Below, in pieces: positions 619-22,266 of a stretch of DNA of 23,664 nucleotides. Source of the DNA: a virus (Duplodnaviria; Heunggongvirae; Uroviricota; Caudoviricetes); IMG/VR virus record IMGVR_UViG_2663763326_000004, positions 1 through 23,664 of that record, one strand, 5' to 3'. The notes under the pieces were generated by a model that saw only the letters and a program-made list of their open reading frames with translations, had not been told where the DNA came from and made no database searches. A program made the position numbers and the translations under genes. How positions within the stretch are numbered: position 1 is the stretch's first letter; every line of letters begins with the position of its first letter.

Positions 619-1242
619 TCACTCATCATCTTCTGTTTCGTACTCCACATCAGAAAGCCTTACCTCAAGCTCCAAAGACGTCGTGAAGCCGCTATTATTG
701 AGAAAATGTGTAACCTTAGTGATGGTCCAGTCCTGCTCGTCTATGACGCGCTTAAAGCCTGACACTTTAACCGGTGTTTCCGTGTAAATATCTGCCCGTC
801 CGGTAGCCAGGCTGATGGAGAACTCTGCTACACCCCGTTGCAGTTTATCCCACTTCGCCTGAGCGGCACGCATGGCCTGTGCTTTCGTGGCATATACCGT
901 GGTCAGGGCAAAAACGTTGTCAGCCTCACCGGCCATGTATTCACCTTCGCGCGCTTCCGGTACTTTTGGCGCTTTCTTCTGCCTGACCGGTTTCGCTTTC
1001 GGGTGCTCCAGTGCGCGCAGGTGTTTCTCTTTCTTTTTGCGTTTCAGTTTTACCTTCTGCTTTTGCGGCTTCGGGTCTTTGGTGTGTAACCACTTTGCCG
1101 TTACGCCGGTGTAGGCTCCACGGTCAGCAATCGCAAAATGATGACGGTCGCCGTCGCTGCGGGTGATGGTGACCTGCTGGATTTTTTTACCGCTGGCCGT
1201 CACCCCCTGCCCCGCTTGCGTATTTTCATGAAAGGAGATCAC
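619..1242 (-). pseudogene. D: Tail protein D (late control gene D), C-terminal fragment, separated from its N-terminal half by the IS insertion
   Basis: The ORF runs from the IS junction to a stop at 619. Its first codon is a GTG formed partly by IS-terminal sequence, and its position between U and ogr matches P2 gene D. Confidence 0.8.
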
Positions 1243-1350
1243 TCAATAACTTCCATCGAGATCGGGTAATAACATTTGAACAGATCGCTGAATAACATCG
1301 ATGGAGATCACTTTTGACTCATTTTGTTATTCAGTGATCTCCATCAATGT
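1229..1350. repeat. IS21-family left terminal repeat region (multiple transposase-binding repeats)
   Basis: A terminal GGAGATCACTCAATAAC is followed by an internal inverted copy GTTATTCAGTGATCTCC and by ATCGATGGAGATCAC. Confidence 0.55.
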
Positions 1351-1409
1351 TATTGGAACTTCACAGGTGTGTTGATCTGTATCTTTTGCCATTCCGGTAA
1401 AGGATACCT

Positions 1410-2951
1410 ATGCCAACAGTTCCAATTTCTATGAGAAAACTTAAAGAAATTCTTAGGCTTAAATACGGTGTTGGACTCAGCCATCGACAAATTGGTCGTA
1501 GTCTTGCAATCTCCCCTTCCGTTGTATCCAGATATGCTAATCGGGCGGCTCAACTTGGCATAAAGCAGTGGCCCTTACCTACAGGATGGGATGATACAAA
1601 ACTAAAACATGCGTTCCTTCAGACCCAGGTTAAGATGAAGAAGCACTCTCTGCCTGACTGGGCTACAGTACACCGGGAACTGCGTAATAAATGCGTGACG
1701 CTGCAGCTACTCTGGGAAGAATACTGTGAGCGTAATCCAGGCGGTTTTTACAGCTATAACCATTACTGCCGGATGTACCGTGAATGGCTCAAAACCACTT
1801 CACCATCAATGCGTCAGGTACATAAAGCTGGCGAAAAACTTTTCGTTGATTACTGTGGACCTACCGTTGGCGTTACCGACCCTGAGACCGGAGAAATAAG
1901 AACTGCTCAGGTCATCGTAGCTGTTCTCGGGGCATCAAGTTACACATGGGCAGAGGCCACCTGGTCTCAGCAGCTTGAAGACTGGGTGATGAGTCATGTT
2001 CGCTGCTTCCAGTGGTTGGGTGGCGTTCCTGAACTTGTTGTTCCGGACAATCTGAAAAGCGCCACATCCAGGGCATGTAAGTATGATCCTGACGTTAACC
2101 CTACCTACCAGCAGATGCTTGAGCATTATAATGTCGCAGTTTTGCCTGCGCGGCCACGTAAACCGAAAGATAAAGCCAAAGCTGAAGTTGGCGTTCAGGT
2201 TGTTGAACGCTGGATCATGGCCCGAATCAGGCATGAGATCTTCTACAGCCTTGCATCGCTTAATCAGCGCATTCGGGAGTTGCTGGAAAGACTGAATAAC
2301 AAAATAATGCAGAAGTTGGGTTATTCACGTGCAGAACTCTTCATCCAGCTTGATAAACCCGCACTGAAGCCTCTTCCTGAAGCCAGTTACAGTTACACCC
2401 TGGTGAAGAAAGTCAGAGTTCATGCCGATTACCACGTGGAAATCGACAAACATTACTACTCGGTTCCATGTTCGCTGTTAGGCCAGCAACTGGAAGCATG
2501 GATCTCCGGAGAACTGGTAAGACTCTTCAATCAGGGGCAGGAGGTTGCTGTGCACCCGCGCAAGCGTACTTATGGCTACAGTACCCGCAACGAGCACATG
2601 CCTGAAGCTCATCGACAGCATGCCACCTGGACGCCAGAGCGTCTTCTGGAATGGGCGGGGCACATAGGCAGTGAAACTCATAGTTATGTGCTTCATATAC
2701 TGAACTCTCGTCCACATCCGGAACAAAGCTATCGCTTCTGCCTTGGACTCCTGAACCTTCATAAAAAATACAGTAAAGCCAGACTTAATGCAGCATGTGC
2801 AAGAGCTCTGAAAACAAAGGTATGGCGTCTGTCAGGTATTAAATCGATCCTGGAAAAAGGTCTGGATAAACAACCTGTTCAGGATCCAAAACCAGATCTG
2901 TTATCCACGATGGAACACGAAAACGTACGCGGCAGTGAGTATTACCACTGA
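1410..2951 (+). CDS. istA: IS21-family transposase IstA (513 aa)
   Basis: N-terminal helix-turn-helix region followed by an integrase-like catalytic core. It is immediately followed by istB, the typical IS21 arrangement. Confidence 0.9.
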   Translation: MPTVPISMRKLKEILRLKYGVGLSHRQIGRSLAISPSVVSRYANRAAQLGIKQWPLPTGWDDTKLKHAFLQTQVKMKKHSLPDWATVHRELRNKCVTLQLLWEEYCERNPGGFYSYNHYCRMYREWLKTTSPSMRQVHKAGEKLFVDYCGPTVGVTDPETGEIRTAQVIVAVLGASSYTWAEATWSQQLEDWVMSHVRCFQWLGGVPELVVPDNLKSATSRACKYDPDVNPTYQQMLEHYNVAVLPARPRKPKDKAKAEVGVQVVERWIMARIRHEIFYSLASLNQRIRELLERLNNKIMQKLGYSRAELFIQLDKPALKPLPEASYSYTLVKKVRVHADYHVEIDKHYYSVPCSLLGQQLEAWISGELVRLFNQGQEVAVHPRKRTYGYSTRNEHMPEAHRQHATWTPERLLEWAGHIGSETHSYVLHILNSRPHPEQSYRFCLGLLNLHKKYSKARLNAACARALKTKVWRLSGIKSILEKGLDKQPVQDPKPDLLSTMEHENVRGSEYYH

Positions 2952-2962
2952 TACGGGATCCA

Positions 2963-3712
2963 ATGATGAATCATCTTTACGAACAACTGACCGCACTTAA
3001 ACTCACCGGCTTCCGTGATGCGCTTAAAAAGCAACTTGCTCAACCGGGCACATACCAGGAGCTGGGCTTCGAAGAACGCCTGTCATTACTGACAGCAGAA
3101 GAACTAACCTGCCGTGAAAACAGGAAGGCAGAGCGTCTGATCAAACATGCACGGTTCAGACTTAATGCTGAGTTATCAAAGCTGGATTATCGTAACAATA
3201 GAGGGCTGGACAGGGCCCTCATCCGTTCACTCAGTCAGGGAAACTGGTTAACCCTGAAACAAAATATTTTACTGACCGGGGCCACCGGCAGCGGTAAAAC
3301 GTTCCTGGCATGTGCACTTGGTCATAATGCCTGCCGACAGGGATACAAGGTCTACTATTATCGCCTTAAAGCGCTGATGGAACAGTGCTATCAGGGGCAT
3401 GCTGATGGAAGATACAGCAAACTTTTGACCAGGCTGAATAATAGCGATCTGCTGCTTCTGGATGACTGGGGGCTGGAACCTCTCTCATCAGAACAGCGTA
3501 GCGACCTGCTGGAAATAGTGGATCTGATGTACCAACGAGGCTCAATCATCGTAGTGAGCCAGTTGCCGGTGGAAAACTGGTACAAAATGATCGGAGACTC
3601 CACACATGCGGATGCCATCCTAGATCGACTGGTTCATGGCAGTATCAAGATCGAACTTAAAGGAGAATCAATGCGGAAAATACAATCTCCGTTGACCGAA
3701 GGAGATCAGTGA
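2963..3712 (+). CDS. istB: IS21-family helper ATPase IstB (249 aa)
   Basis: Walker A motif GATGSGKT and Walker B motif LLLLDDWG, in a DnaC/IstB-like protein directly downstream of istA. Confidence 0.9.
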   Translation: MMNHLYEQLTALKLTGFRDALKKQLAQPGTYQELGFEERLSLLTAEELTCRENRKAERLIKHARFRLNAELSKLDYRNNRGLDRALIRSLSQGNWLTLKQNILLTGATGSGKTFLACALGHNACRQGYKVYYYRLKALMEQCYQGHADGRYSKLLTRLNNSDLLLLDDWGLEPLSSEQRSDLLEIVDLMYQRGSIIVVSQLPVENWYKMIGDSTHADAILDRLVHGSIKIELKGESMRKIQSPLTEGDQ

Positions 3713-3744
3713 AGGTAATTTAAAAACGGTTCTGTGAAAGTGAC

Positions 3745-3785
3745 ACGAACCGATCTCCATCGATGTTACTCACCGATCTCCTTCA
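3745..3785. repeat. IS21-family right terminal repeat region
   Basis: Two direct copies of CCGATCTCC (ACCGATCTCCATCGATGTTACTCACCGATCTCC) at the right IS end, inverted relative to the left-end repeats. Confidence 0.55.
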
Positions 3786-4368
3786 CGGTAATACGCACCG
3801 CTTTGAGAAACAACAATTTTCCCATTTTTACCGACACCTCACCGCCGTTGCGTTCTGCAAGACGGGTCAGGAATTTCGCATCAGACTCCTGCGACTGGTC
3901 GATGTGCGGGATTTTAATTCCGGCCAGTGACGGAGCGACACTGGCTTCCAGCCTGTTACGGGAGGCTATCGCCTCAACAATCGCACCGAGCGTGGTGTCA
4001 TGCCAGGAGCCTTCACGGCGGGAATTGAGCGTCCCGCGGAAATCTGCACTCCGGGCGCGGATGGTGACCACATCCGGCGCGCCCCGGTGTTCAACCTCAT
4101 CAACGGTGAATTTCCCTTTGCATACCAGGGCAAAACCTTTCCAGCCGATATACACCGTCAGGACAGCGCCACGAACCGGCAGCCCGACCTGCCCGTCGGC
4201 ATCGTTCAGTTCAATATCAAGCTGGTCAGCCTCAAAGCCCCGGTTATCCGTCAGGGTCATGCTCATCAGACGGTCACTGATATTGCCGGTAATATCCCTG
4301 CTGTCGAGCATCAGCATGTAATCCGGCGTCAGCGTACTGCCTGCATCAAATGTCAGTGCATCCAGCAT
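3766..4368 (-). pseudogene. D: Tail protein D, N-terminal fragment truncated by the IS21-family insertion
   Basis: Starts MLDALTFDAGSTLTPDYMLMLDSRDITGN, with its ATG overlapping the U stop (TAATG). The last few codons (KEIGE-stop) are read from IS-terminal sequence. Confidence 0.8.
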
Positions 4369-8316: not shown

Positions 8317-9507
8317 TTAATTGCTGTTAACCGAGGTGACCAGATTTGCCAGGTATTTATCGGTAATACGCTGGCGCAGGGTCAGGTTTTCGAGAGGAGG
8401 CACCGGGGTATAGTCGTAGTCGATATACAGTTTGCCGGCCTTGAGGGTTTCCGCATCGTTGGATTCTTCGCTAAACCAGCAGGTCGCATCCACGATATAG
8501 CCGTTTGTTTTCAGCTCACGGAATTTGGCATTGATGCCGTCAACGATGTCGCGAATCAGCGTTGCGGTGATGGGCTTGTCCACCGCCCACATGTGCGCCT
8601 CAGCCATCGTGTCGGCCAGCACCTGCGCGGTGCGGGTGTAGTTTTCAAAGAGGAACAGCGGGTCATCAGAGCAGGTACGGTTACCCCAGAAGCGGAAACC
8701 GTCACGGCGAATCAGCGTTGTGACACCTGACTCGTTCAGCAGGTCAGCATCGGTGCCGGACTCCTGCAAATCCCAGAATACGGACGCACTGATGCCGGTA
8801 ACACCGTTTACCCCGACGTTGGACAGCGTTTTATGCCAGCCCTGCTCCTGGTCGATTCTGGCACGCAGACCCAGCGCACGGGCGGTGGCATACGCGGTGG
8901 CGGTGGTACTGGTGACCGTATCCCATGCGAGGAAATCCGGCCAGATTACCATCAGCTCACGCTGGCTGAAATTCTGGCGGTAGGCTTTCACCTCGGAAAT
9001 GGTTTTACAGCCCCATGCGCTGATATACCCGAAAGCGCGCAGCTTCTGGCAGACTGATGCCAGTGCAACAGCCACCTCTTTGGTGTCCAGTCCCGGCACA
9101 CCGAGAATACGCGGTTTAACACCGGTTACCGACTCTGCCGCCAGCAGGGCTTTCAGTCCGGTATACTGACCGTTTTCGTCAGTGGTGCCGATGATATTGG
9201 AAACGGTCTGCGCGAGTTTCGTTTCTTCGTCGTCGCCGGTGCCGTCTTCCACACGCACGACAACGGTGACCGGTTTTGACTGGTCAGCGATGGCCTGCAG
9301 CGACGCCGCCAGCGTGCCTTTTTTACCGGCCTTTGCAATTGCGCTCTGCACATTGGTAATCAGCACAGGTTTATTGAGGGGGAAGGTTTCCGCATCCGCA
9401 TCGCTGGCCGTGCAGACCATGCCGACAATGGCAGTGGATACAGTGGAAATGACGCGGGTGCCGTCGTTAATCTCCAGCACCTGCACGCCGTGATGATAGT
9501 CACTCAT
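8317..9507 (-). CDS. FI: Contractile tail sheath protein FI (396 aa)
   Basis: 396 aa starting MSDYHHGVQVLEINDGTRVISTVSTAIVG, with a GGAG ribosome-binding site 8 nt upstream. Matches P2 gpFI. Confidence 0.9.
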   Translation of the reverse strand: MSDYHHGVQVLEINDGTRVISTVSTAIVGMVCTASDADAETFPLNKPVLITNVQSAIAKAGKKGTLAASLQAIADQSKPVTVVVRVEDGTGDDEETKLAQTVSNIIGTTDENGQYTGLKALLAAESVTGVKPRILGVPGLDTKEVAVALASVCQKLRAFGYISAWGCKTISEVKAYRQNFSQRELMVIWPDFLAWDTVTSTTATAYATARALGLRARIDQEQGWHKTLSNVGVNGVTGISASVFWDLQESGTDADLLNESGVTTLIRRDGFRFWGNRTCSDDPLFLFENYTRTAQVLADTMAEAHMWAVDKPITATLIRDIVDGINAKFRELKTNGYIVDATCWFSEESNDAETLKAGKLYIDYDYTPVPPLENLTLRQRITDKYLANLVTSVNSN

Positions 9508-9534
9508 CCGTTTAACTCCGTGGTTAATGGGTGC

Positions 9535-9600
9535 AACTATTTTCTGTTGTGCAGAGCATGAGACGCTATTTGACCTGGCTGGTCAGTGGATGAAACAACA
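9535..9600 (-). promoter_or_regulatory. Candidate late promoter for the FI-FII-E-T-U-D operon (Ogr-dependent, P2 P_F-like)
   Basis: P2 late promoters carry an Ogr dyad (TGT-N12-ACA) centred near -55. Upstream of FI there is a partial match, TGT-ttcatccactga-cCA, and an A/T-rich -10-like AGAAAATAG about 25 nt before the ribosome-binding site. Confidence 0.3.
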
Positions 9601-10081
9601 GATAAAGAAAAGGCGAGCAATCAGCCCGCCTGCCTTGATTTGTACTCTTTCAGTTTCCAACTGACAAATTACGTAACCAAAACTCTGTCAAATCTGACAG
9701 TCTGCTTTGAGCGAAAAACAGGTATTGAGATACATAATAAATCATCTCAATTTTCAACTTTTCTGCCACTTAACATCTTGAGTAGTAAATAGTACAAAAC
9801 TATCTACTGCCGAAGGGCTCTAGGAAGTATGGTTTCTGCACAATAAGACTTATATCGGCTCACGGGGAGCCAAAAGATATTCATTGCCTAGAATTTGCAG
9901 ATGAGGTGGTAATCTGTACTGGGGCGGTACTGCAACAGCTATGTATATTTCCACTGCGGTAATCTGTACCAGCAGGTAGAAGCTGTTATACATCACCGCC
10001 CCTGTAGTGCTAATCCGGAGATAGCACTACTCTCATCAAGGCTTGTTCTTCCATAAACCGCAATAGGTGTTAGTTTTAGCC

Positions 10082-10939
10082 TTAATGTAAAATTAACAAT
10101 TGATTCAGACGCTTATGTAATTTTGTGGTTCTAAATGTATGATGATCGTAACTCATACGCATATAACTATCTATCTCATCCAGACGCATGTTCTTATTTA
10201 CAGATATATCAGTTTCATACATCATTTTTAATATACATGTAAAGTCATGACCATTGCATATAGAAAAATGATCTGGCGACATTAATTCTAATTTACGCAT
10301 TTCATTATATAAATTTTTCGCATTAAAATCCTTATCAGTACGACTCCTGCTAAGCACATGATTTATATATTTGGTTTCATCAACTACAACATCTGTCCTG
10401 TTAATACTTACAAAATTCCTGTAATTCATTCCTTTGAAATTAAGATTGCTATGTGTAAGATAATTGTACCATTTGAGAAGTCCGATTTTATAGCATGCAC
10501 AAAGGATGTTCATCTTTACATCCTGACAGAATATATCGGCCAATTCCCCTTGAATTAATTTTCTATCTGTATGTGACATAATGAATTTATCAACCGCACC
10601 ACCTTTTACTAACATCATTTCAAGGTCATGAGCATCAGTATAAAAAATCCCCTCGTGATTTATTCCGCTTAACTCATCAAAGTCCGCGTCACATACACCA
10701 TACACAGCATTATTACCTGCACGACGTAATTGACTAACAGCCAATATTACTTCACGTTTTCCATTTTCAGGTGATTCATAAATGATTCTATTATCAAGCC
10801 GATATGCATTGAAAAATCGGATATCTGAAATGCCCTCAACCACAATCAATATACAACGTTGATACATTTCATTTCTGAATAAAAGCATCATACTACTCAA
10901 CCAATCATCTTCGCGAACAGCATTGCGTAATGACATCAT
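10082..10939 (-). CDS. DUF4435/TOPRIM-like (OLD-family-type) putative nuclease, AriB-like effector of a PARIS-like system (285 aa)
   Basis: N-terminal ILIVVEGISD (TOPRIM glutamate) and downstream VYGVCDADFDE (DxD metal-binding motif). GC content is very low, and the ATG follows the upstream ATPase stop with no gap (TAA ATG). Confidence 0.7.
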   Translation of the reverse strand: MMSLRNAVREDDWLSSMMLLFRNEMYQRCILIVVEGISDIRFFNAYRLDNRIIYESPENGKREVILAVSQLRRAGNNAVYGVCDADFDELSGINHEGIFYTDAHDLEMMLVKGGAVDKFIMSHTDRKLIQGELADIFCQDVKMNILCACYKIGLLKWYNYLTHSNLNFKGMNYRNFVSINRTDVVVDETKYINHVLSRSRTDKDFNAKNLYNEMRKLELMSPDHFSICNGHDFTCILKMMYETDISVNKNMRLDEIDSYMRMSYDHHTFRTTKLHKRLNQLLILH

Positions 10940-12184
10940 TTACTCGTTTCCTTCTGAAAGCTGTTGGCTTTCATTTCTATTTCTAATCATTTCATATAGA
11001 TCGTATGTTAATTCCCAATTCTTACTAATTACTTGTGGTGAATGAGTAGCAATAATGACCTTTTCATACTTGTTAATCTTTTGTATTTTTTTGAGAGAAT
11101 CCAAGAAAGTTTGTTGCCAGGCGACATGTAATGATATTTCTGGCTCGTCTATAAGAATTACTTTTTGTGAAACAAAATCGAAAATCAAATTAAAAAGAAG
11201 AACTATTTGGTTCTGTTCACCTGATGAAAGCAAATTACGATCAATAACATCGCCATTGTGACTTTTGAAATAAAATCCGTTATCTCTATCAATCATCACT
11301 TTTTTAAAAGCTAAAACCTTTTCTTTCAAAATTGATTCAAATAAATCAATTTTTTGATGTAATGTCTGAAACGGTGACAATTTTCCAAGGGCATCTTCAA
11401 TATATAGATCCAACACACTTAGATATTCATTGCTACTATAAAAACTTGTGCTTTTTTGAGGCATTAGCTCGTTATCAGCCTGAATAAGGCCATAACGCAT
11501 ATAATGTCGACGTTTATCTTGAATACCATTTAAGCGATCTTGAATATTTTCTGATGAAAATCGTTTTGATTGCTCTAAACGCTCAAATAATCGAATAGGA
11601 AATGTAGCGTCTAATTTTTGTGATAATGCAGCGGAATCATCTTGTGCATTTTTCATTAAATATTTTAATTTTCTAGCACATAAGTCAATGACTGTTTCAT
11701 CAACAGCTTTGACTTGTAATCGATCTGCACATATAAAAGATACGTCTTCTTTCGATGTAATATGACTTAACACATCCGAAGATAATGGTTTATCAGTTCG
11801 TAATTTTTGTTTTGGTTTAACATCCCCCCTATGCAAGCTTACATAAAATAACTCTTCCATAATAGATTCATCTGTCTGTAACTTGAGTCTTTCTTCCGTT
11901 CTGTTTCCTGAGCTATTATCCAGATGATTCAATATTAAACCATCTTTATTGGTGTCATGAGTAATTGAAACAGAGCCACCTTGAAAATCAATTTTAATAA
12001 AATCAAAATTAAGTTTACAGAGAGCATTTAATTCATTTGTAAGAATACTATTGATGATTTTAAGAATCATTGTCTTACCATATCCATTTGGACCAGTAAG
12101 CATAGTAATTTCATTGTTATCCAAGGGAATTTCATAATCAAGGAGACCAAATAGTTTTTTTACTTTTAAATGTATCAATTTCAT
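10940..12184 (-). CDS. ABC/SMC-like ATPase (AAA_15/AAA_21 type), AriA-like sensor of a PARIS-like system (414 aa)
   Basis: Walker A GPNGYGKT, an ABC-signature-like LSSGEQ, Walker B VILIDEPE and an H-loop IIATHSP, with a long helical insertion between the nucleotide-binding halves. AT-rich codon usage is unlike the flanking phage genes. Confidence 0.75.
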   Translation of the reverse strand: MKLIHLKVKKLFGLLDYEIPLDNNEITMLTGPNGYGKTMILKIINSILTNELNALCKLNFDFIKIDFQGGSVSITHDTNKDGLILNHLDNSSGNRTEERLKLQTDESIMEELFYVSLHRGDVKPKQKLRTDKPLSSDVLSHITSKEDVSFICADRLQVKAVDETVIDLCARKLKYLMKNAQDDSAALSQKLDATFPIRLFERLEQSKRFSSENIQDRLNGIQDKRRHYMRYGLIQADNELMPQKSTSFYSSNEYLSVLDLYIEDALGKLSPFQTLHQKIDLFESILKEKVLAFKKVMIDRDNGFYFKSHNGDVIDRNLLSSGEQNQIVLLFNLIFDFVSQKVILIDEPEISLHVAWQQTFLDSLKKIQKINKYEKVIIATHSPQVISKNWELTYDLYEMIRNRNESQQLSEGNE

Positions 12185-12199
12185 ATCAACCTCGCAGAC

Positions 12200-12280
12200 G
12201 ATGAATTATAACCATTTATTACATGGCGCATATGAAATGCAATATATCATTGTCATGAGTTGCATTTCAAACATATGCCC
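12200..12280 (-). promoter_or_regulatory. Candidate sigma70 promoter(s) with an embedded inverted-repeat operator, upstream of the ATPase gene
   Basis: On the coding strand, TTGAAA, an 18-nt spacer and TATATT, followed by a second perfect TATAAT about 20 nt before the ATG and a GAGG ribosome-binding site. The inverted repeat GAAATGCAA-N17-TTGCATTTC brackets the first -35 and -10 elements. Confidence 0.4.
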
Positions 12281-13214
12281 CAACATCAATGCTAAATCCG
12301 TGATTAAAATTAATAAACTTCTGGTTTTTGCAAATAATTTCTTGCCCTAATAGTTTGGAAATACCTCTTTTAAATTTATAGTGAATAATATTACGCCCAT
12401 TTAGTTCTCTCTTTGCAGAACTGAACATGTCGGGAGCTACTGTGTGGAGAAACACTGAAACGATCGTTAGTGAATATTTGCACACTGGTGATAGTACTAA
12501 ACAGCCCTTTGGTCATGTCCGAAAAATAGTGACTCGTACAACATGATCGATGTGATAGCATTTATGACAGTGAAACATAACAATCACCTTTGAACATTTT
12601 CCATACGTGCATTATACCTATTAAATCTAAACAAAACAAATAGATATAAAATATTCATCCGCGTATCTTCATGCTCTCATATACCACATACGGGAGCCTT
12701 AACATCAAGTACTAAGCACGTCGTGAAGCTGTTTCCGTTAAGACGACTTTGCACTACTTGACTGATTAGCCATGCCTGCTTGTCTATCACACATTTAAAG
12801 TTTTTCATCGCTAACGTAGTTAGTCCATTCCCTTGAATGGCGTTTTACCAGTCTATATATGACAAATATCGTACTTTTTCCACATTCAGTCCAATTCATT
12901 CACCGCTCCCGATTCACCTACAACACCCTCTCAACGACGTTCTCTGTACCTGTAATACCGGCGCAAATTGCGTCGAAAATGTCGTTCTGCATCGCATAAA
13001 CCTTCATCAGATTTGGCCTACAATGCAGCGAATAGTCTGAAATTAAAAACCGATGATGATGGACTGTACTGTTCATGCAAGTCTGGTCGCTCTGTGCCTC
13101 ATCAAGGAATGAATAATGATCTTGGCGACGTCTACTCTTGGCACAGAGCGGACTGTCAGATTAGTTTTTACTCTGTGCCATAGATGAGTAATCTCACACC
13201 AGATCTAATACAAT

Positions 13215-13793
13215 TTATTGCGGCATTTCCGGCCATTCTATATCCGGAGCATCTTCCGGCTGAACGCGATTCAGTAACACACGGTATTTTTTCCAGTGTG
13301 TCAGGCTTAACTTTTCTTCCTCGGTAGCCATATCTAAATCGACAGCATCCTGCAGCGTGGCAATGATTTCACCTGCATATGCAATCTGCTCTTTCTTCTG
13401 AGACTCCGCCGCTCTGACAAGCGCATCACGCTCTGCATTCTCATCATTCACCCACGCATTTCCGTTCCATTTCTGATAATCCCCCTCCGGGGAAATGGCT
13501 GTCACGTCTGGAGGTAATGCGCCAAGTTCAGAAATATAAATGGCTGCTCCCGTTTTCGTTTCGTAGACAGTCTTTCCGCGATGATCTTCCATCAACTCCC
13601 ATTTCATTTCATCTGCATTGAAAACGGCTGCATAACCAGCAGGAATATCAGGTGGTGCAATATCTGTACTGTTTGCAGGCAGGCCAGTATACGGCGGAAT
13701 ATATGCATCACTTTCGCCAATAAACTCATTGGTTCCATCAAGTAAATTGAAAACGCGGATAGTTTGTGCTTCTGCACTCATTCTGAAAGCCAT
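13215..13793 (-). CDS. G: Tail fiber assembly protein G (192 aa)
   Basis: Directly downstream of H with its ATG overlapping the H stop (TAATG). Size and position match P2 gpG. Confidence 0.8.
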
Positions 13794-16411
13794 TATGCAA
13801 GCCTCACAATATAGTTAAATGCGATGTTTTTGACGGTGTTTTCGGTATTACCAGTAGCATTTACGGTAATGGAATGCCCGTGTGAGCCAATAGCAACAGT
13901 GTGTGAATGTGCACCAATACCAACAGTATGGTTATGTGCTCCAATGTCGACTGTATGTGCATGATTGCCTGATGAACTTGTAGTCGTAGCACCTTTATCA
14001 CTTCGCGGAACACCATAATCTGCACCGCCTGATTGCACGCTCACAGCAAAACCGACGGTATGTGTATGATTGCCAGAAGTATTGGTTGATTTTGTGCCGT
14101 GGTTAAACGTACTGACTGTTTTTGTCCCGTAATCAAATGAACTGGTCGTTTTCGTTCCTAAGTCCGTATTTGACGCACTGGCGCTGTGAGTATGCGATTT
14201 AATCCCGTCCTGTTCCTGTGACAATACGGCACGCCCACTGGCGGGTTTGCCCTTGATTGTCCAGCCGCGCATATCAGGAATAACACCAGAAGGATAGGCA
14301 ATAGCCAGTTTCGGATATGCAGCCTTATCAAACGTCTGCCCCTGCATGATCGCATAGCCTGCAGGTGGTGTATCTGATGGCCACGGCAGCGGAACACCTG
14401 GCGGAAACGCTTCAATATCTTTCGTCCCGTCAAAGGTTACGCCGTTAATTGTCCTTGCCGTTTTCAGCTTTGTTGCTGTAGCAGCATTGCCGGACAGTTC
14501 GCCTGAAAGACCGGCGCTGAAGGTTTGTTTCGCCGCCCATGTCTGGGCTTCGTCAATAATTGGCACACGTCTTGTGGTGATCGTGCGACTTCCCGGATTT
14601 CCTGAAATACGCACCATAAAAAAGCGGTAGTTCGCTTTACTTACAGTGCTGCGCCATACATGCATTGAGCGCCCCGCACCGGAATCATCACTCGGACCAA
14701 CTGAGATGTTTATCAGGTTGCCATCAATGACGCCCCAGTCCATACCTTCGGGAATGTTGGTCATGTTATCAAGCCGAACGGTTATCAGACTGCCCGGCAC
14801 AAAGTCGTAGGTCTGCCAGTCCAGGCTGGAGAGTTTTGCCACTGCACCGCCGATACCCAGATTCAGGGGAAGTGAATACGAGGTGTAGACTTCCCGCCAT
14901 TCGCTCCACGAGCTGCCGGTATAGACGCGCTCAAACGTGCGACCTTTAAGGGTTGCACCTGTTCCGGCAGTTGTATAACGCTGCCATACGTTAACACCAT
15001 CAAAGCGCCTCAACACTTCCAGAATCCCGAGGACTGTCACGCCGTTTCCGTCCAGTATTGGACCGTTGGTCGCTTTACCTGTAACGCTGTAAATACCTGG
15101 TGAAGTCACCTCATTCAAATCCCCGTCGTAATAACGACTCTCTGACTGATGACCGACTCTTAACCACGGTTCCCACTGTGGATTTGATGCATCCCAGCTT
15201 GCCGCAAGGCAGCGGACATACATATTTCCACGGCGAGTGGTATAACGTTGCGTTCTTCCATAATTCCCGCCTTCGAGGATCTCAAGCATCCCCTGAGCAA
15301 AGCCGCCTTCCTCTGGATAATTGCGTTCATATGAAGCTATAGCCGAGCTACTGTTACGCCATAAACCAAGATGCTCGGCGGCTCCAAGCGTATTCAGGTC
15401 TATAGTCGTACTCAAAGGGCGGGTAGCAGATTGAGTGTGACGCCATACGCCCCACGGACCATCAGTGCCATTCCACTTATTGGCGAGTTTACGCATGTAA
15501 ACATTGCCGTCTCTCGTGGTAAAGCGTTGCGTACCTGCAAAATTGCCGGCAGCAAAAACCTCAAGCACACCGACAGCATTATCTTCCGGGAAATTTTTCT
15601 CCAGTGTTGCGTTAGTTGAGGTAGCTTTAGACCAGATCCCCAGATAAGCCTTAACGGGACCAAATGTATTCAGGTCGGCATCAACCGGCATTTCGCCATT
15701 GTTTTTCATAAACGTCAGACTGGTAACGCCAACATTGTCCAGAAAAGCTGATTTATCCTGGATATCTGCACCATTCTGATTTTTCGCCAGACGTGAATTT
15801 GCGTTGTCATTTGCTGCCTTGACCGCTTTTGGCGTTGCCGCCAATGACTCACTGGTGCTGTTTGTTGCACTGCTTAACTGAGTAAAACCTTTTTCTGTCA
15901 GCGTGGCGTCAGGATGGCGGCGGGACTGCTCATGTTCTGCGATTTTGTCATCGACGTAATCCTGCGTCGCCATCACTGTGCTGGCATCAATACTCAGCTC
16001 AACGGACGCCACGTTACTGACAATAATAACCATGCGGCAGGTCTGCGCACGCCCGGAGCCTTCAGCGAGTTCAGGCTTATAGCTTTCTGCCATGTTGGCG
16101 ACCGCAATCAGTGTTCCGGCATCGTCATACAGACCAAGCTCACGCATCCAGAAGCCGCCCACTTCGGGCGGTACAACCAGTTCAGCCACGATATAGTTTT
16201 TATTCTTATTATCCACGCTGACTTTATTCAGAGCGTGACGCCAGACCTCATGCACCAGTTTCGTCTGACCGGCATCCGGCACCGGCAATTTGCCATTACC
16301 GTCACCCACGGCCATTGCAGACAGGTTTACTTTTTTCCCGCCGGGGACAGTGGCGGCTGCCAGCTTCGCGGCTCCGGCAGTAGTGATAACGGTTTTAAAT
16401 TTCGTGCTCAT
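13793..16411 (-). CDS. H: Tail fiber protein H (872 aa)
   Basis: Conserved P2-type N-terminus [30 protein letters not shown]. The central region has three tandem repeats of about 60-70 aa and the C-terminus has repeated HxH motifs (GNHTHT, GNHAHT, AHNHT, AHSHT, SHGHS). Confidence 0.9.
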
Positions 16412-21554: not shown

Positions 21555-21758
21555 TTACTCCCACAGATTGACAGTTTCAGCCACGGGCGCGGTCTGAACG
21601 TCGGGCAGTTCGACGGCGGTGCCGTGCGGCAGCACCGCACCCAGTTCAGCCAGTCCCGGATTTGCGGCGAGCACAGTCTCGACCACGCCCTCAGTGCGCC
21701 CGTAATACCGGACACAAATGGCGTCGAGCGTGTCGCCCTGTAGCGCAAAGGTCTTCAT
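21555..21758 (-). CDS. X: Tail protein X (67 aa)
   Basis: Internal start MKTFALQGDTLDAICVRYYGRTEGVVETVLAANPGL within ORF 21555..21827. Confidence 0.85.
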   Translation of the reverse strand: MKTFALQGDTLDAICVRYYGRTEGVVETVLAANPGLAELGAVLPHGTAVELPDVQTAPVAETVNLWE

Positions 21759-22266
21759 CAGATTTGACTCACGATGCAGCGTGGCTTGTCCTGGATGCGC
21801 GCCACTGCCCAGCGCATATCCCGCCACAGTTCATCAATGGTGCTGTCAATGCTGTCGGCCTTCTTGTCGCCTTTCGCACTGGCATCCACGCCGCGATAAC
21901 GCTCATAAAGCGACGCGGTCGCCATCGCACACACGGCGCGCTCGTAGTAAAAAACTTTGATACTTTCACCGTCGATGTCGTCCGCCGGAACGTCCGCCAG
22001 ACGCGTAAAACCGGCGGCAATTTTCTGTTCGCGGTACTCGTACAGCTCCGCATTTGTTTCCGCCATGCCTGACTTGATGGCCTCACGCAGACGGGCGGGG
22101 CGACGGTCTGCTCAAGGCGCATACGTTCCCGGACGCGCTTCGGGTCGATATCGGGAAAAAAGAACGTGTTTTTAATCACCGGCTCGTCGCCTGCCGGTTG
22201 CGGGATGACCACCGTACCCTCACCGGACACGGGAGCCTCCTTTCGCGGAATAATCAGCGTCATCAT
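21758..22266 (-). pseudogene. L: Head completion protein L, frameshifted
   Basis: The N-terminal part (MMTLIIPRKEAPVSGEGTVVIPQPAGDEPVIKNTFFFPDIDPKRVRERMRLEQTVAP) is in one frame and the rest (MAETNAELYEYREQKIAAGFTRLADVP...) is in ORF 21758..22066. The span is 509 nt, one short of 510 nt for 169 aa, with the deletion near plus 22093..22100. Confidence 0.75.

Follow-up and report, generated by a model that had tools for sequence, protein, structure and literature searches.

In P2-like phages, the non-essential Z/fun locus lies between the tail-fibre assembly gene G and the tail sheath gene FI. In P2 it is occupied by fun(Z), which encodes 528 aa and runs antisense to the late genes, between the annotated late-operon terminator and the pF activator site. 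The locus has been published as the second defence and diversity hotspot of P2-like phages (PMC9519451; bioRxiv 10.1101/2024.10.15.618418); Rousset et al. analysed the gpA-gpQ hotspot only, not G-FI. The inverted repeats flanking fun, and the proposal of a site-specific exchange, are described in a review that credits Nilsson et al. 2004 (PMC8987985). Here we examine the same interval in the IMG/VR virus record IMGVR_UViG_2663763326_000004 (positions 1 to 23,664; "the window" denotes this whole stretch of 23,664 nt), which is the late region of a P2-like prophage, lies on the minus strand and has an identical copy in E. coli ST131 strains. We consider it likely that positions 13212-9641 (minus strand) form a 3.57-kb cassette without a transposase, situated in the Z/fun hotspot and carrying as its payload the two genes of a PARIS defence system, ariA and ariB.

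PARIS, the phage anti-restriction-induced system, is defined by the pairing of such an ATPase with a DUF4435 protein (PMC9122126). In the PARIS of E. coli B185, AriA holds AriB inactive until a trigger such as Ocr frees it; the freed AriB cleaves tRNA-Lys, tRNA-Thr and tRNA-Asn, and translation stops. The complex has the composition AriA6:AriB3 and the outcome is abortive infection (PMC11464382; PMC12409363). A 2026 survey of P2 and P4 hotspots found transposable elements to be nearly absent there, with the mechanism of exchange remaining to be elucidated (PMC13586616). The hotspot, PARIS and the flanking inverted repeats are already published. What was unexpected is that the edges of the hotspot are likely to be the ends of a widespread, duplication-generating cassette family common to other prophage and island hotspots.

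The putative cassette between G and FI

The two anchor genes, the cassette with its parts and the adjacent late-operon signals are located as follows (positions in the window).

13215..13793, minus strand: G, tail-fibre assembly gene, upstream anchor (Pfam Caudo_TAP, 5e-40)
8317..9507, minus strand: FI, encoding the tail sheath, anchor on the downstream side (matches to Pfam Phage_sheath_1 and related domains)
9641..13212, minus strand: the putative cassette as a whole (3,572 bp), placed after the stop codon of G and before the late-operon terminator
13130..13212, minus strand: left (G-side) end, about 83 nt, starting 5'-TGTATTAGATC
9641..9723, plus strand: right (FI-side) end, about 83 nt, reading 5'-TGTACTCTTTCAG on the plus strand
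13138..13162: inner inverted-repeat arm on the G side, AATCTGACAGTCCGCTCTGTGCCAA on the minus strand
9691..9715: inner inverted-repeat arm on the FI side, overlapping a small hairpin at 9685-9700
13213..13219, minus strand: left flanking 7-mer AATAAAT, which includes the G stop codon
9634..9640, minus strand: right flanking 7-mer AATCAAG, a putative decayed target-site duplication (5/7)
10940..12184, minus strand: ariA, 414 aa, ABC-type ATPase (Pfam AAA_15 and AAA_21; PADLOC AriA)
10082..10939, minus strand: ariB, 285 aa, DUF4435/Toprim nuclease (Pfam DUF4435; PADLOC AriB; AlphaFold2 model)
9611..9631, minus strand: intrinsic terminator hairpin with a T-run
9508..9610, minus strand: pF late-promoter region upstream of FI, homologous to the activator site and transcription start annotated in P2

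A preliminary description of this DNA had reported a sharp change of composition from G to FI, and the GC windows bear this out. The GC content falls from about 0.56 to about 0.31 between the two genes and stays at 0.30-0.35 across 10000-12500, against 0.54-0.59 in the tail genes from FI to D and 0.46-0.53 in G and H; ariA has a GC content of 0.306 and a third-position GC (GC3) of 0.217, compared to 0.567 and 0.680 in FI. The list of open reading frames (ORFs) agrees that only two cargo genes lie between the G stop at 13215 and the FI start at 9507, since ariA and ariB are the only ORFs of more than 100 aa in the interval. No ORF of the size of fun(Z) is present, as had been stated, and a tblastn search with P2 Fun(Z) gave a best E value of 3.4, so there is no remnant of it either. 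The position of fun(Z) between G and FI in P2 was confirmed from the P2 annotation. The locus thus resembles Z/fun of P2 in its position, in the flanking inverted repeats, which are also found in P2, and in its AT-rich, non-essential cargo, whereas P2 has a single antisense gene and here two genes are co-oriented with the late genes.

The same description had taken the site for a variable hotspot of P2-like phages, with which the two reports cited above and our own census agree. Our sample comprised 80 viral contigs with an FI 86-100% identical to that of the window, 44 of which are loci with a conserved frame. The G-FI gap measures 128-4,404 bp (median 1,472 bp, in 67 P2-like viral contigs), and the 44 framed loci hold 31 unrelated cargo clusters, all with a GC content of 0.32-0.45; across the 80 contigs, at least 31 different cargoes occupy the interval. 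ORFs carried between G and FI elsewhere include an OLD-like ATPase-Toprim, TIR, a reverse transcriptase, a Cap15-like receptor, SMEK, RelA/SpoT and DUF3800. Far from being conserved with its genes in most P2-like phages, the full island was found in 13 of 5,426 complete E. coli genomes, and the edges alone in about 970. Because the full island is rare while its edges are widely shared, and the cargoes are diverse, the proposed swap of the locus by horizontal exchange is supported.

The sequences conserved across P2-like phages are about 210 nt at 9508-9721, which include the small hairpin, the terminator and the pF region, and about 100 nt at 13115-13214. A 25-nt inverted repeat is placed exactly where the homology to P2 and P2-like phages ends. 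It is kept, irrespective of cargo, in 44 of the 80 loci, where the spacing ranges from 883 to 4,144 bp, and its consensus is 33 nt long with 28/33 matches (score 46, against 15 +/- 2.7 for shuffled sequences), the inner edges being the boundaries of the cargo. These arms are parts of a larger frame, formed by two transposon-like ends, each of about 83 nt and starting 5'-TGTATTAG. The termini of the cassette were set by homology to elements elsewhere that are flanked by target-site duplications, together with a comparison with empty sites. Judged against 1,000 shuffles, the left end scores 33 (shuffles -20 +/- 4.6), with 58 of its 83 positions identical to the left-end type of complete elements, and the right end scores 25 (shuffles -21 +/- 4.6), with 54 of 83 identical to the right-end type. 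Both ends are conserved in P2-like loci, the left one despite different cargo.

The two ends are asymmetric, each being homologous to its own type in other elements, and the idea that their outer parts are inverted repeats of each other was rejected as not significant (p = 0.28). Within each end, inspection by eye suggests two similar copies of a motif, ATCTGAC[A/G]G, at a distance of about 33 nt. A search for vestigial extra ends inside the cassette, such as a nested earlier insertion would leave, returned none above noise. The hairpins at the boundaries have compensatory changes in 0/8 G-side pairs and 2/22 FI-side pairs, in columns that are almost invariant and hence uninformative.

Six P2-like loci are empty at the sequence level. 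In them the G stop codon is followed by 2-3 nt and then by the terminator, both ends are absent, and a single AATAAA[T/C] is present. On this basis, the entire stretch 13212-9641, including its conserved edges, is an insertion between G and the terminator, and the hairpin at 9611-9631, which directly follows G in the empty sites, is the terminator of the V-to-G late operon. Most of the framed P2-like loci share the decayed flanks AATAAGT and AATCAGG, which suggests a single old insertion inherited by descent, the interior having been exchanged later.

Relatives of the cassette ends and the origin of the frame

A degenerate pattern fitting both arms matched 23 species in a collection with one genome per species. 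The matched species are mostly Enterobacterales, and also include Acinetobacter, Neptunicella and a metagenome-assembled genome of the Pseudomonadales. The 8-kb stretch encodes no P2 late protein at 21 of these 23 loci. Most of the loci have the arm as the inner portion of a conserved module, about 83 nt long, with the start 5'-TGTATTAGCTCAG that the G-side edge in P2 also has. Between genomes, the sequences outside TGTA and inside ...GCGGAC are unrelated. Five loci have two inverted modules enclosing 0.7-6.3 kb, and all five are bounded by perfect 7-bp direct repeats (CACTATT, GCTAATA, AATAATT, CTTAATA and GCTAACT), all different and AT-rich; CTATATC, TTTCATG and CATAAAT are duplicated at other insertions. 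The terminus was found in at least 120 viral-contig loci, where 22 inverted end-pairs have flanks that match at 7/7 positions in eight cases, 6/7 in four and 5/7 in three, the chance of a 7/7 match being about 6e-5 per pair. The duplicated 7-mers of 13 complete elements are AT-rich and loosely follow NNTAATW, suggesting a preference in the choice of target; the one used in P2 overlapped the stop codon of G.

Of the complete E. coli genomes, 1,219 of 5,426 contain the end module. Examples of its sites are positions downstream of the integrase in tRNA-Gly and tRNA-Leu islands and, in a lambdoid prophage, the position just behind ren. The ends in the tRNA-Gly island (L120:6001-6083) and in the O157:H7 tRNA-Leu island (L121:6001-6083) are at most a few hundred bases away from the integrase genes. 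For neither could a partner be found within 6 kb, and they may be one-ended remnants or belong to much larger elements. In the lambdoid prophage of E. coli Z0117EC0116 (L122:5001-5079), the end stands immediately after ren and beside a gene for DUF4041, a domain that Vassallo et al. 2022 reported in a defence system. This cassette family may thus also supply the ren-nin moron region of lambdoid phages. Neither the P4 reference genome nor the gpA-portal hotspot has these ends.

The defence cargo of the cassettes comprises PD-T7-1, PD-T7-5, PD-T4-3, PDC-S15, PDC-S31, ThsB, Nsn, AbiV, SIR2 and a pPIWI-associated nuclease system, and further cargo includes metabolic clusters. A complete 6.3-kb cassette of Pantoea sp. 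(L103:1582-7838) encodes a LysR regulator, a cyclophilin-like protein, a major facilitator superfamily transporter, a dehydrogenase and a hydrolase, so the cassettes can carry other than defence genes. The end also has a second variant, with ...TTTGAGCTGTGAGTTCAA in its inner part instead of ...TTTGAGCGAGGAGCGGAC; it occurs at L101, L102, L104, L111, L113 and L119, with a related form at L097, ranges from Pectobacterium to Neptunicella, and may be a sub-family or a different junction. As candidate sources of mobility we considered a transposase inside the large sister elements, in which only passenger genes were found, and the IS21-family ISEc12 present in the window, whose ends are unrelated to those of the cassette.

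The variable 7-bp duplications and the TGT...ACA termini point to a DDE-type transposase acting in trans, and the frame is likely to be of transposon origin. The hotspot would have begun as one transposition into an ancestral P2-like phage, as the ends of about 83 nt and the 7-bp duplications around sister elements suggest, and cargo would later have been exchanged between elements sharing these ends. For the window itself, transposition is argued from the homology to sister elements and the comparison with empty sites, since its own 7-mers agree at 5/7.

Close parallels are mobile insertion cassettes, MITEs (miniature transposable elements bounded by inverted repeats) and the Tn3-derived inverted-repeat miniature elements (TIMEs). 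The cassettes share with them terminal inverted repeats, target-site duplication, the lack of a transposase, a content of 1-6 passenger genes and an empty/filled polymorphism (seen at the six P2-like loci). They differ from them in having long ends (about 83 nt), the left type being distinct from the right one, in the TGT...ACA termini and the duplication of 7 bp, and in their low copy number, their location in prophage and island hotspots and their frequent defence genes. DDE transposons of the Tn7-like, Mu, Tn552 and IS21 types resemble the cassettes, which have 5'-TG termini and long ends with apparent repeated internal motifs, and Tn7-like elements are also known to carry defence cargo. 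The duplications made by Tn7 and Mu measure 5 bp, compared to 7 bp in the cassettes. TnsABC, MuAB and IstAB genes were not found inside the cassette elements examined.

More tentatively, and as a nearly even matter, we propose that the Z/fun frame could represent the ends (about 83 nt, asymmetric, 5'-TGTATTAGCTCAG) of an uncharacterised family of transposase-less cassettes that duplicates 7 bp of AT-rich target and both seeds and supplies defence hotspots in unrelated mobile elements. The proposal covers jointly, and with the same reserve, the G-FI site of P2-like phages, the ren-nin region of lambdoid phages, the integrase-proximal sites of tRNA islands and the copies in Acinetobacter and Neptunicella. 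We found no description of the family or of its end sequence in the searchable literature, outside which Nilsson et al. 2004 falls, and the novelty of the transposon reading is uncertain.

Two other accounts of the frame have to be weighed. According to the first, the island was gained purely by homologous recombination among P2-like phages, and its edges are ordinary backbone, such as a terminator and a promoter, and owe nothing to transposition. Such an account would fit the outer part of the left end, which co-varies with the neighbouring G allele and not with the cargo; the decayed flanking 7-mers shared by the framed P2-like loci, which indicate one old event followed by exchange; and the lack of cargo inversions, no opposite-strand matches of the kind that arm-mediated inversion would leave having been found among the 44 cargoes. 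We judge it unlikely, as the same 83-nt ends bound cassettes with perfect and variable 7-bp duplications in genomes without nearby P2 late genes, and as both ends are entirely absent from the empty P2 sites.

According to the second, the ends are the sites of a tyrosine or serine site-specific recombinase that moves the cassettes, which is the proposal credited to Nilsson et al. 2004 in the review, where the inverted repeats flanking fun are seen as enabling the exchange (PMC8987985). Several copies do adjoin P4-type integrases, and invertases have been reported at the locus (bioRxiv 10.1101/2024.10.15.618418), and the Morganella copy contains one. However, the duplications differ between insertions, which is the signature of transposition with staggered cuts and not of a fixed recombination core, and the termini are 5'-TGT...ACA-3', with the two ATCTGAC[A/G]G-like motifs read by eye in each end; this account appears quite improbable to us.

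The PARIS payload and its predicted expression

As judged from sequence and from a structural model, the ariA-ariB pair is a divergent PARIS system with a predicted defence function. AriA matches Pfam AAA_15 (4.5e-20, residues 1-386 of 414) and AAA_21 (1e-16) and the PADLOC model AriA (1.9e-25), AriB matches Pfam DUF4435 (5.3e-25) and PADLOC AriB (2.6e-21), and the two genes adjoin without a gap at 10939/10940. AriA has a Walker A motif GPNGYGKT at 31, the signature LSSGE at 319, a Walker B motif VILIDEPE at 342 and an H-loop THS at 380. Its top PDB sequence match is the AriA of 8ux9, alignable only around the signature and Walker B, with the DEPEISLH block aligning to B185 AriA, in which E393 is the Walker B glutamate. 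In AriB, the motifs E35/D39, D84-A-D-F-D88, HDLE107 and NGHD are invariant in 13 relatives, down to 31% identity. Its acidic pattern (E35-x3-D39, D86-x-D88, E107) resembles the Toprim set of B185 AriB (E26, D30, D88, E90 and E122; PMC11464382) in its sequence pattern.

The AlphaFold2 model of AriB has a mean predicted local distance difference test score (pLDDT) of 87.2. A Foldseek search of the model against the PDB at E <= 0.001 gave two matches only, the AriB chains 8ux9_A and 8v46_D of the two solved PARIS complexes, both with probability 1.00, with template modelling (TM) scores of 0.50-0.53 over 312-318 aligned columns that span the full length, and the pair is filed as a divergent PARIS because these are the only significant matches. 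It is 99.9-100% conserved across the 13 E. coli genomes, and its clade is widespread in Enterobacterales, with the genes always paired. The two proteins (WP_001531543 and WP_001531545) had no mention that we could find in the searchable literature.

The pair shares with the PARIS of E. coli B185, which resides in a P4-like satellite (8ux9, 8v45-8v49), the order of an ABC ATPase followed by a DUF4435/Toprim nuclease, the ATPase motifs, an apparent Toprim-like acidic pattern, the AriB fold and a location in a mobile element at a defence hotspot. It differs in the length of AriA (414 aa here, 464 aa in B185) and in the hotspot, which is the G-FI site of P2 here and the P4 psu-int site in B185. 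A second relative, of the same PARIS clade, is the pair that Klebsiella P2-like prophages carry in their gpA-portal (old/tin) hotspot (AriB 76% and AriA about 70% identical). It occupies another hotspot, is not bounded by the 83-nt ends, and its homology is confined to the coding core.

By analogy with B185, AriA would be an ATPase scaffold that keeps the Toprim nuclease AriB inactive, and a trigger made by the phage, an anti-restriction protein such as T7 Ocr, would bind AriA. AriB would then be released, dimerise and cut host tRNAs (Lys, Thr and Asn in B185), leading to a translation stop and an aborted infection. Given the divergence of both proteins from B185, the trigger and the tRNA targets may differ; Burman et al. 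report that the trigger-sensing pores of AriA are poorly conserved across 11 PARIS clades.

Septu (PtuA-PtuB) was ruled out because the partner is a DUF4435 protein without an HNH domain, and OLD or Gabija GajA because there are two separate ORFs and the GajA and Old models score far below AriA. That ariAB is no working PARIS, being either a decaying remnant or another ATPase-nuclease system (Septu, Gabija or OLD-type), is very improbable: the ATPase scores nearly equally with PtuA models and AriA (84.8 vs 87.9 bits), pseudogenes abound around the pair and the prophage is defective, but the partner has the AriB fold with no HNH PtuB and no fused Toprim domain, both ORFs are intact, abut and keep all catalytic motifs, and the pair is conserved as described above, both in the 13 genomes and as a constant pair in its clade.

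The stretch of about 285 nt before ariA holds the best sigma-70-like site and, 7 nt ahead of the ATG, a GAGG ribosome-binding site.

12241..12270, minus strand: candidate sigma-70-like promoter for ariAB, TTGAAA-18-TGnTATATT (10/12 match to consensus)

This predicted promoter, about 55 nt upstream of ariAB, would give the pair its own transcription, probably for expression in the lysogen. No terminator-like site was found on the coding strand between G and ariA, and transcripts of the late V operon are therefore expected to run through ariAB to 9631-9611, so that late read-through of the pair during lytic growth is probable.

Several observations weigh against the picture of a mobile cassette with a working PARIS payload. 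The flanking 7-mers of the window match at 5/7 positions only, with a chance probability of about 0.01-0.03; no transposase lies inside any element examined, and none consistently adjoins one; and the genomes contain few copies, the median being 1. For the payload, the solved AriB was reached neither by a single-sequence search nor by a profile of the 13-member clade, and the structural alignment with it has 11-12% identity. Promoter-like matches are no commoner in this AT-rich DNA than in shuffled sequence (12 found, 17.5 expected). Finally, the prophage is defective, and the phage context of the cassette may be a fossil.

Relics, prophage context and significance

The rest of the island would be no functional spacer but the two ends of about 83 nt together with debris from earlier homes of the cassette, of which we recognised the following pieces.

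12918..13040, minus strand: L'-X' relic, the end of the head-completion gene L (IRCIVGQI*) and the first 29 codons of the tail protein gene X, then a stop
12698..12820, minus strand: D' relic, the C-terminal 41 codons of a gpD homologue (tblastn 44%, E = 1.4e-6)
12473..12578, minus strand: ogr' relic, the frameshifted N-terminus of an Ogr-like zinc-finger activator (MFHCHKCYH...YHQCANI)
9796..10067, minus strand: lysR' relic of a LysR-family regulator, of which the C-terminal third is left, interrupted by two in-frame stops

The L'-X' relic has 74% nucleotide identity to the real L/X junction at 21677-21781 and matches the L/X junction in about 960 E. coli genomes. The region of the D' relic matches the D-ogr junction at the nucleotide level, including a copy of the D-ogr intergenic sequence. 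The lysR' relic is 76% identical in nucleotides to plasmid LysR genes (tblastn 60-71% amino acid identity, E = 1e-20), and it may derive from a metabolic cassette of the Pantoea type.

The preliminary description had called the flanks of the two genes non-coding and repeat-rich. They hold no intact genes, which agrees with the first term, but they are not featureless, given the pseudogene relics and the conserved sequences; the second term does not fit, as the repeats in 4.1 kb amount to six inverted pairs and four families of short direct repeats with two copies each. Besides the pseudogenes, that description missed the identity of PARIS and the conserved edges as ends of a transposon-like cassette. 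Comparison of the non-coding parts with Rfam found no RNA gene. The E-value scan of 9300-13400 gave a sub-threshold IS009 match inside G and a chance snoRNA match, nothing else, and neither tRNA nor transfer-messenger RNA (tmRNA) genes were found in the island region. The IS009 match (13252-13400, minus strand) reaches 41 bits, against a gathering score of 117, with E = 3e-7. It lies inside the coding region of G and probably reflects the homology of the tail-fibre assembly gene to the cryptic-prophage region in which that small RNA was defined.

Parts of the cassette recur in other settings. The minimal ariAB core (12224-10068) has an 86% identical copy on a Rouxiella plasmid, and the coding region alone is found in the gpA-portal hotspot of Klebsiella P2-like prophages with about 74-83% nucleotide identity. 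A degraded Morganella prophage has two parts of the cassette at 76-84% identity, one being the core together with the relics of ogr and lysR and the other, apart from it, the left end plus the L'-X' relic; its left terminus is kept and its right end truncated. The interior 12970-9694 is almost whole, at 93% identity, in an E. coli island that is not of phage origin (GCA_033741755.1, L086:3970-10884) and that adjoins a two-partner secretion locus. There an nSTAND NTPase gene follows the PARIS interior, a second intact right end lies beyond that gene at about 10832, 3.6 kb further on, and ArdC-type genes also adjoin; by its sequence, this arrangement looks like two cargo modules within one frame.

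In a P2-like prophage of Morganella psychrotolerans (L107:7340-7960), a cassette end lies about 350 nt downstream of an ogr homologue, a third insertion position in P2-like phages that matches the D'-ogr' relic. The relic may thus plausibly record an earlier home of the cassette downstream of ogr.

The tail gene D (window 619-4368), which encodes a VgrG-like late control protein, is interrupted by ISEc12.

619-1218 and 3799-4368: fragments of D
1410-2951: istA
2963-3712: istB

The prophage is defective because gpD is split, and it is very probably unable to make tails, though the PARIS cassette is intact. At the other side of the cassette, G and the 3' part of H (13215-14300) have a GC content of 0.43-0.47, below that of the rest of the late region. 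The identity of G to that of the window ranges from 34% to 99% among the contigs with an FI 86-100% identical. With FI nearly constant, this range implies that the host-range module beside the cassette has itself been exchanged.

At face value, this locus is a known hotspot with a known kind of defence system, here from a divergent PARIS clade that could have different triggers or tRNA targets, and the finding is a modest one. If the edges are transposon ends that cassettes at lambdoid and island hotspots also have, some defence hotspots would be landing pads made and refilled by one family of mobile cassettes, and not mere permissive gaps. This would provide a concrete mechanism for how defence genes reach the "predictable" hotspots of phages and for their rapid swapping at fixed sites, and it would offer a sequence tag for new defence cargo, namely anything that lies between a left and a right end.

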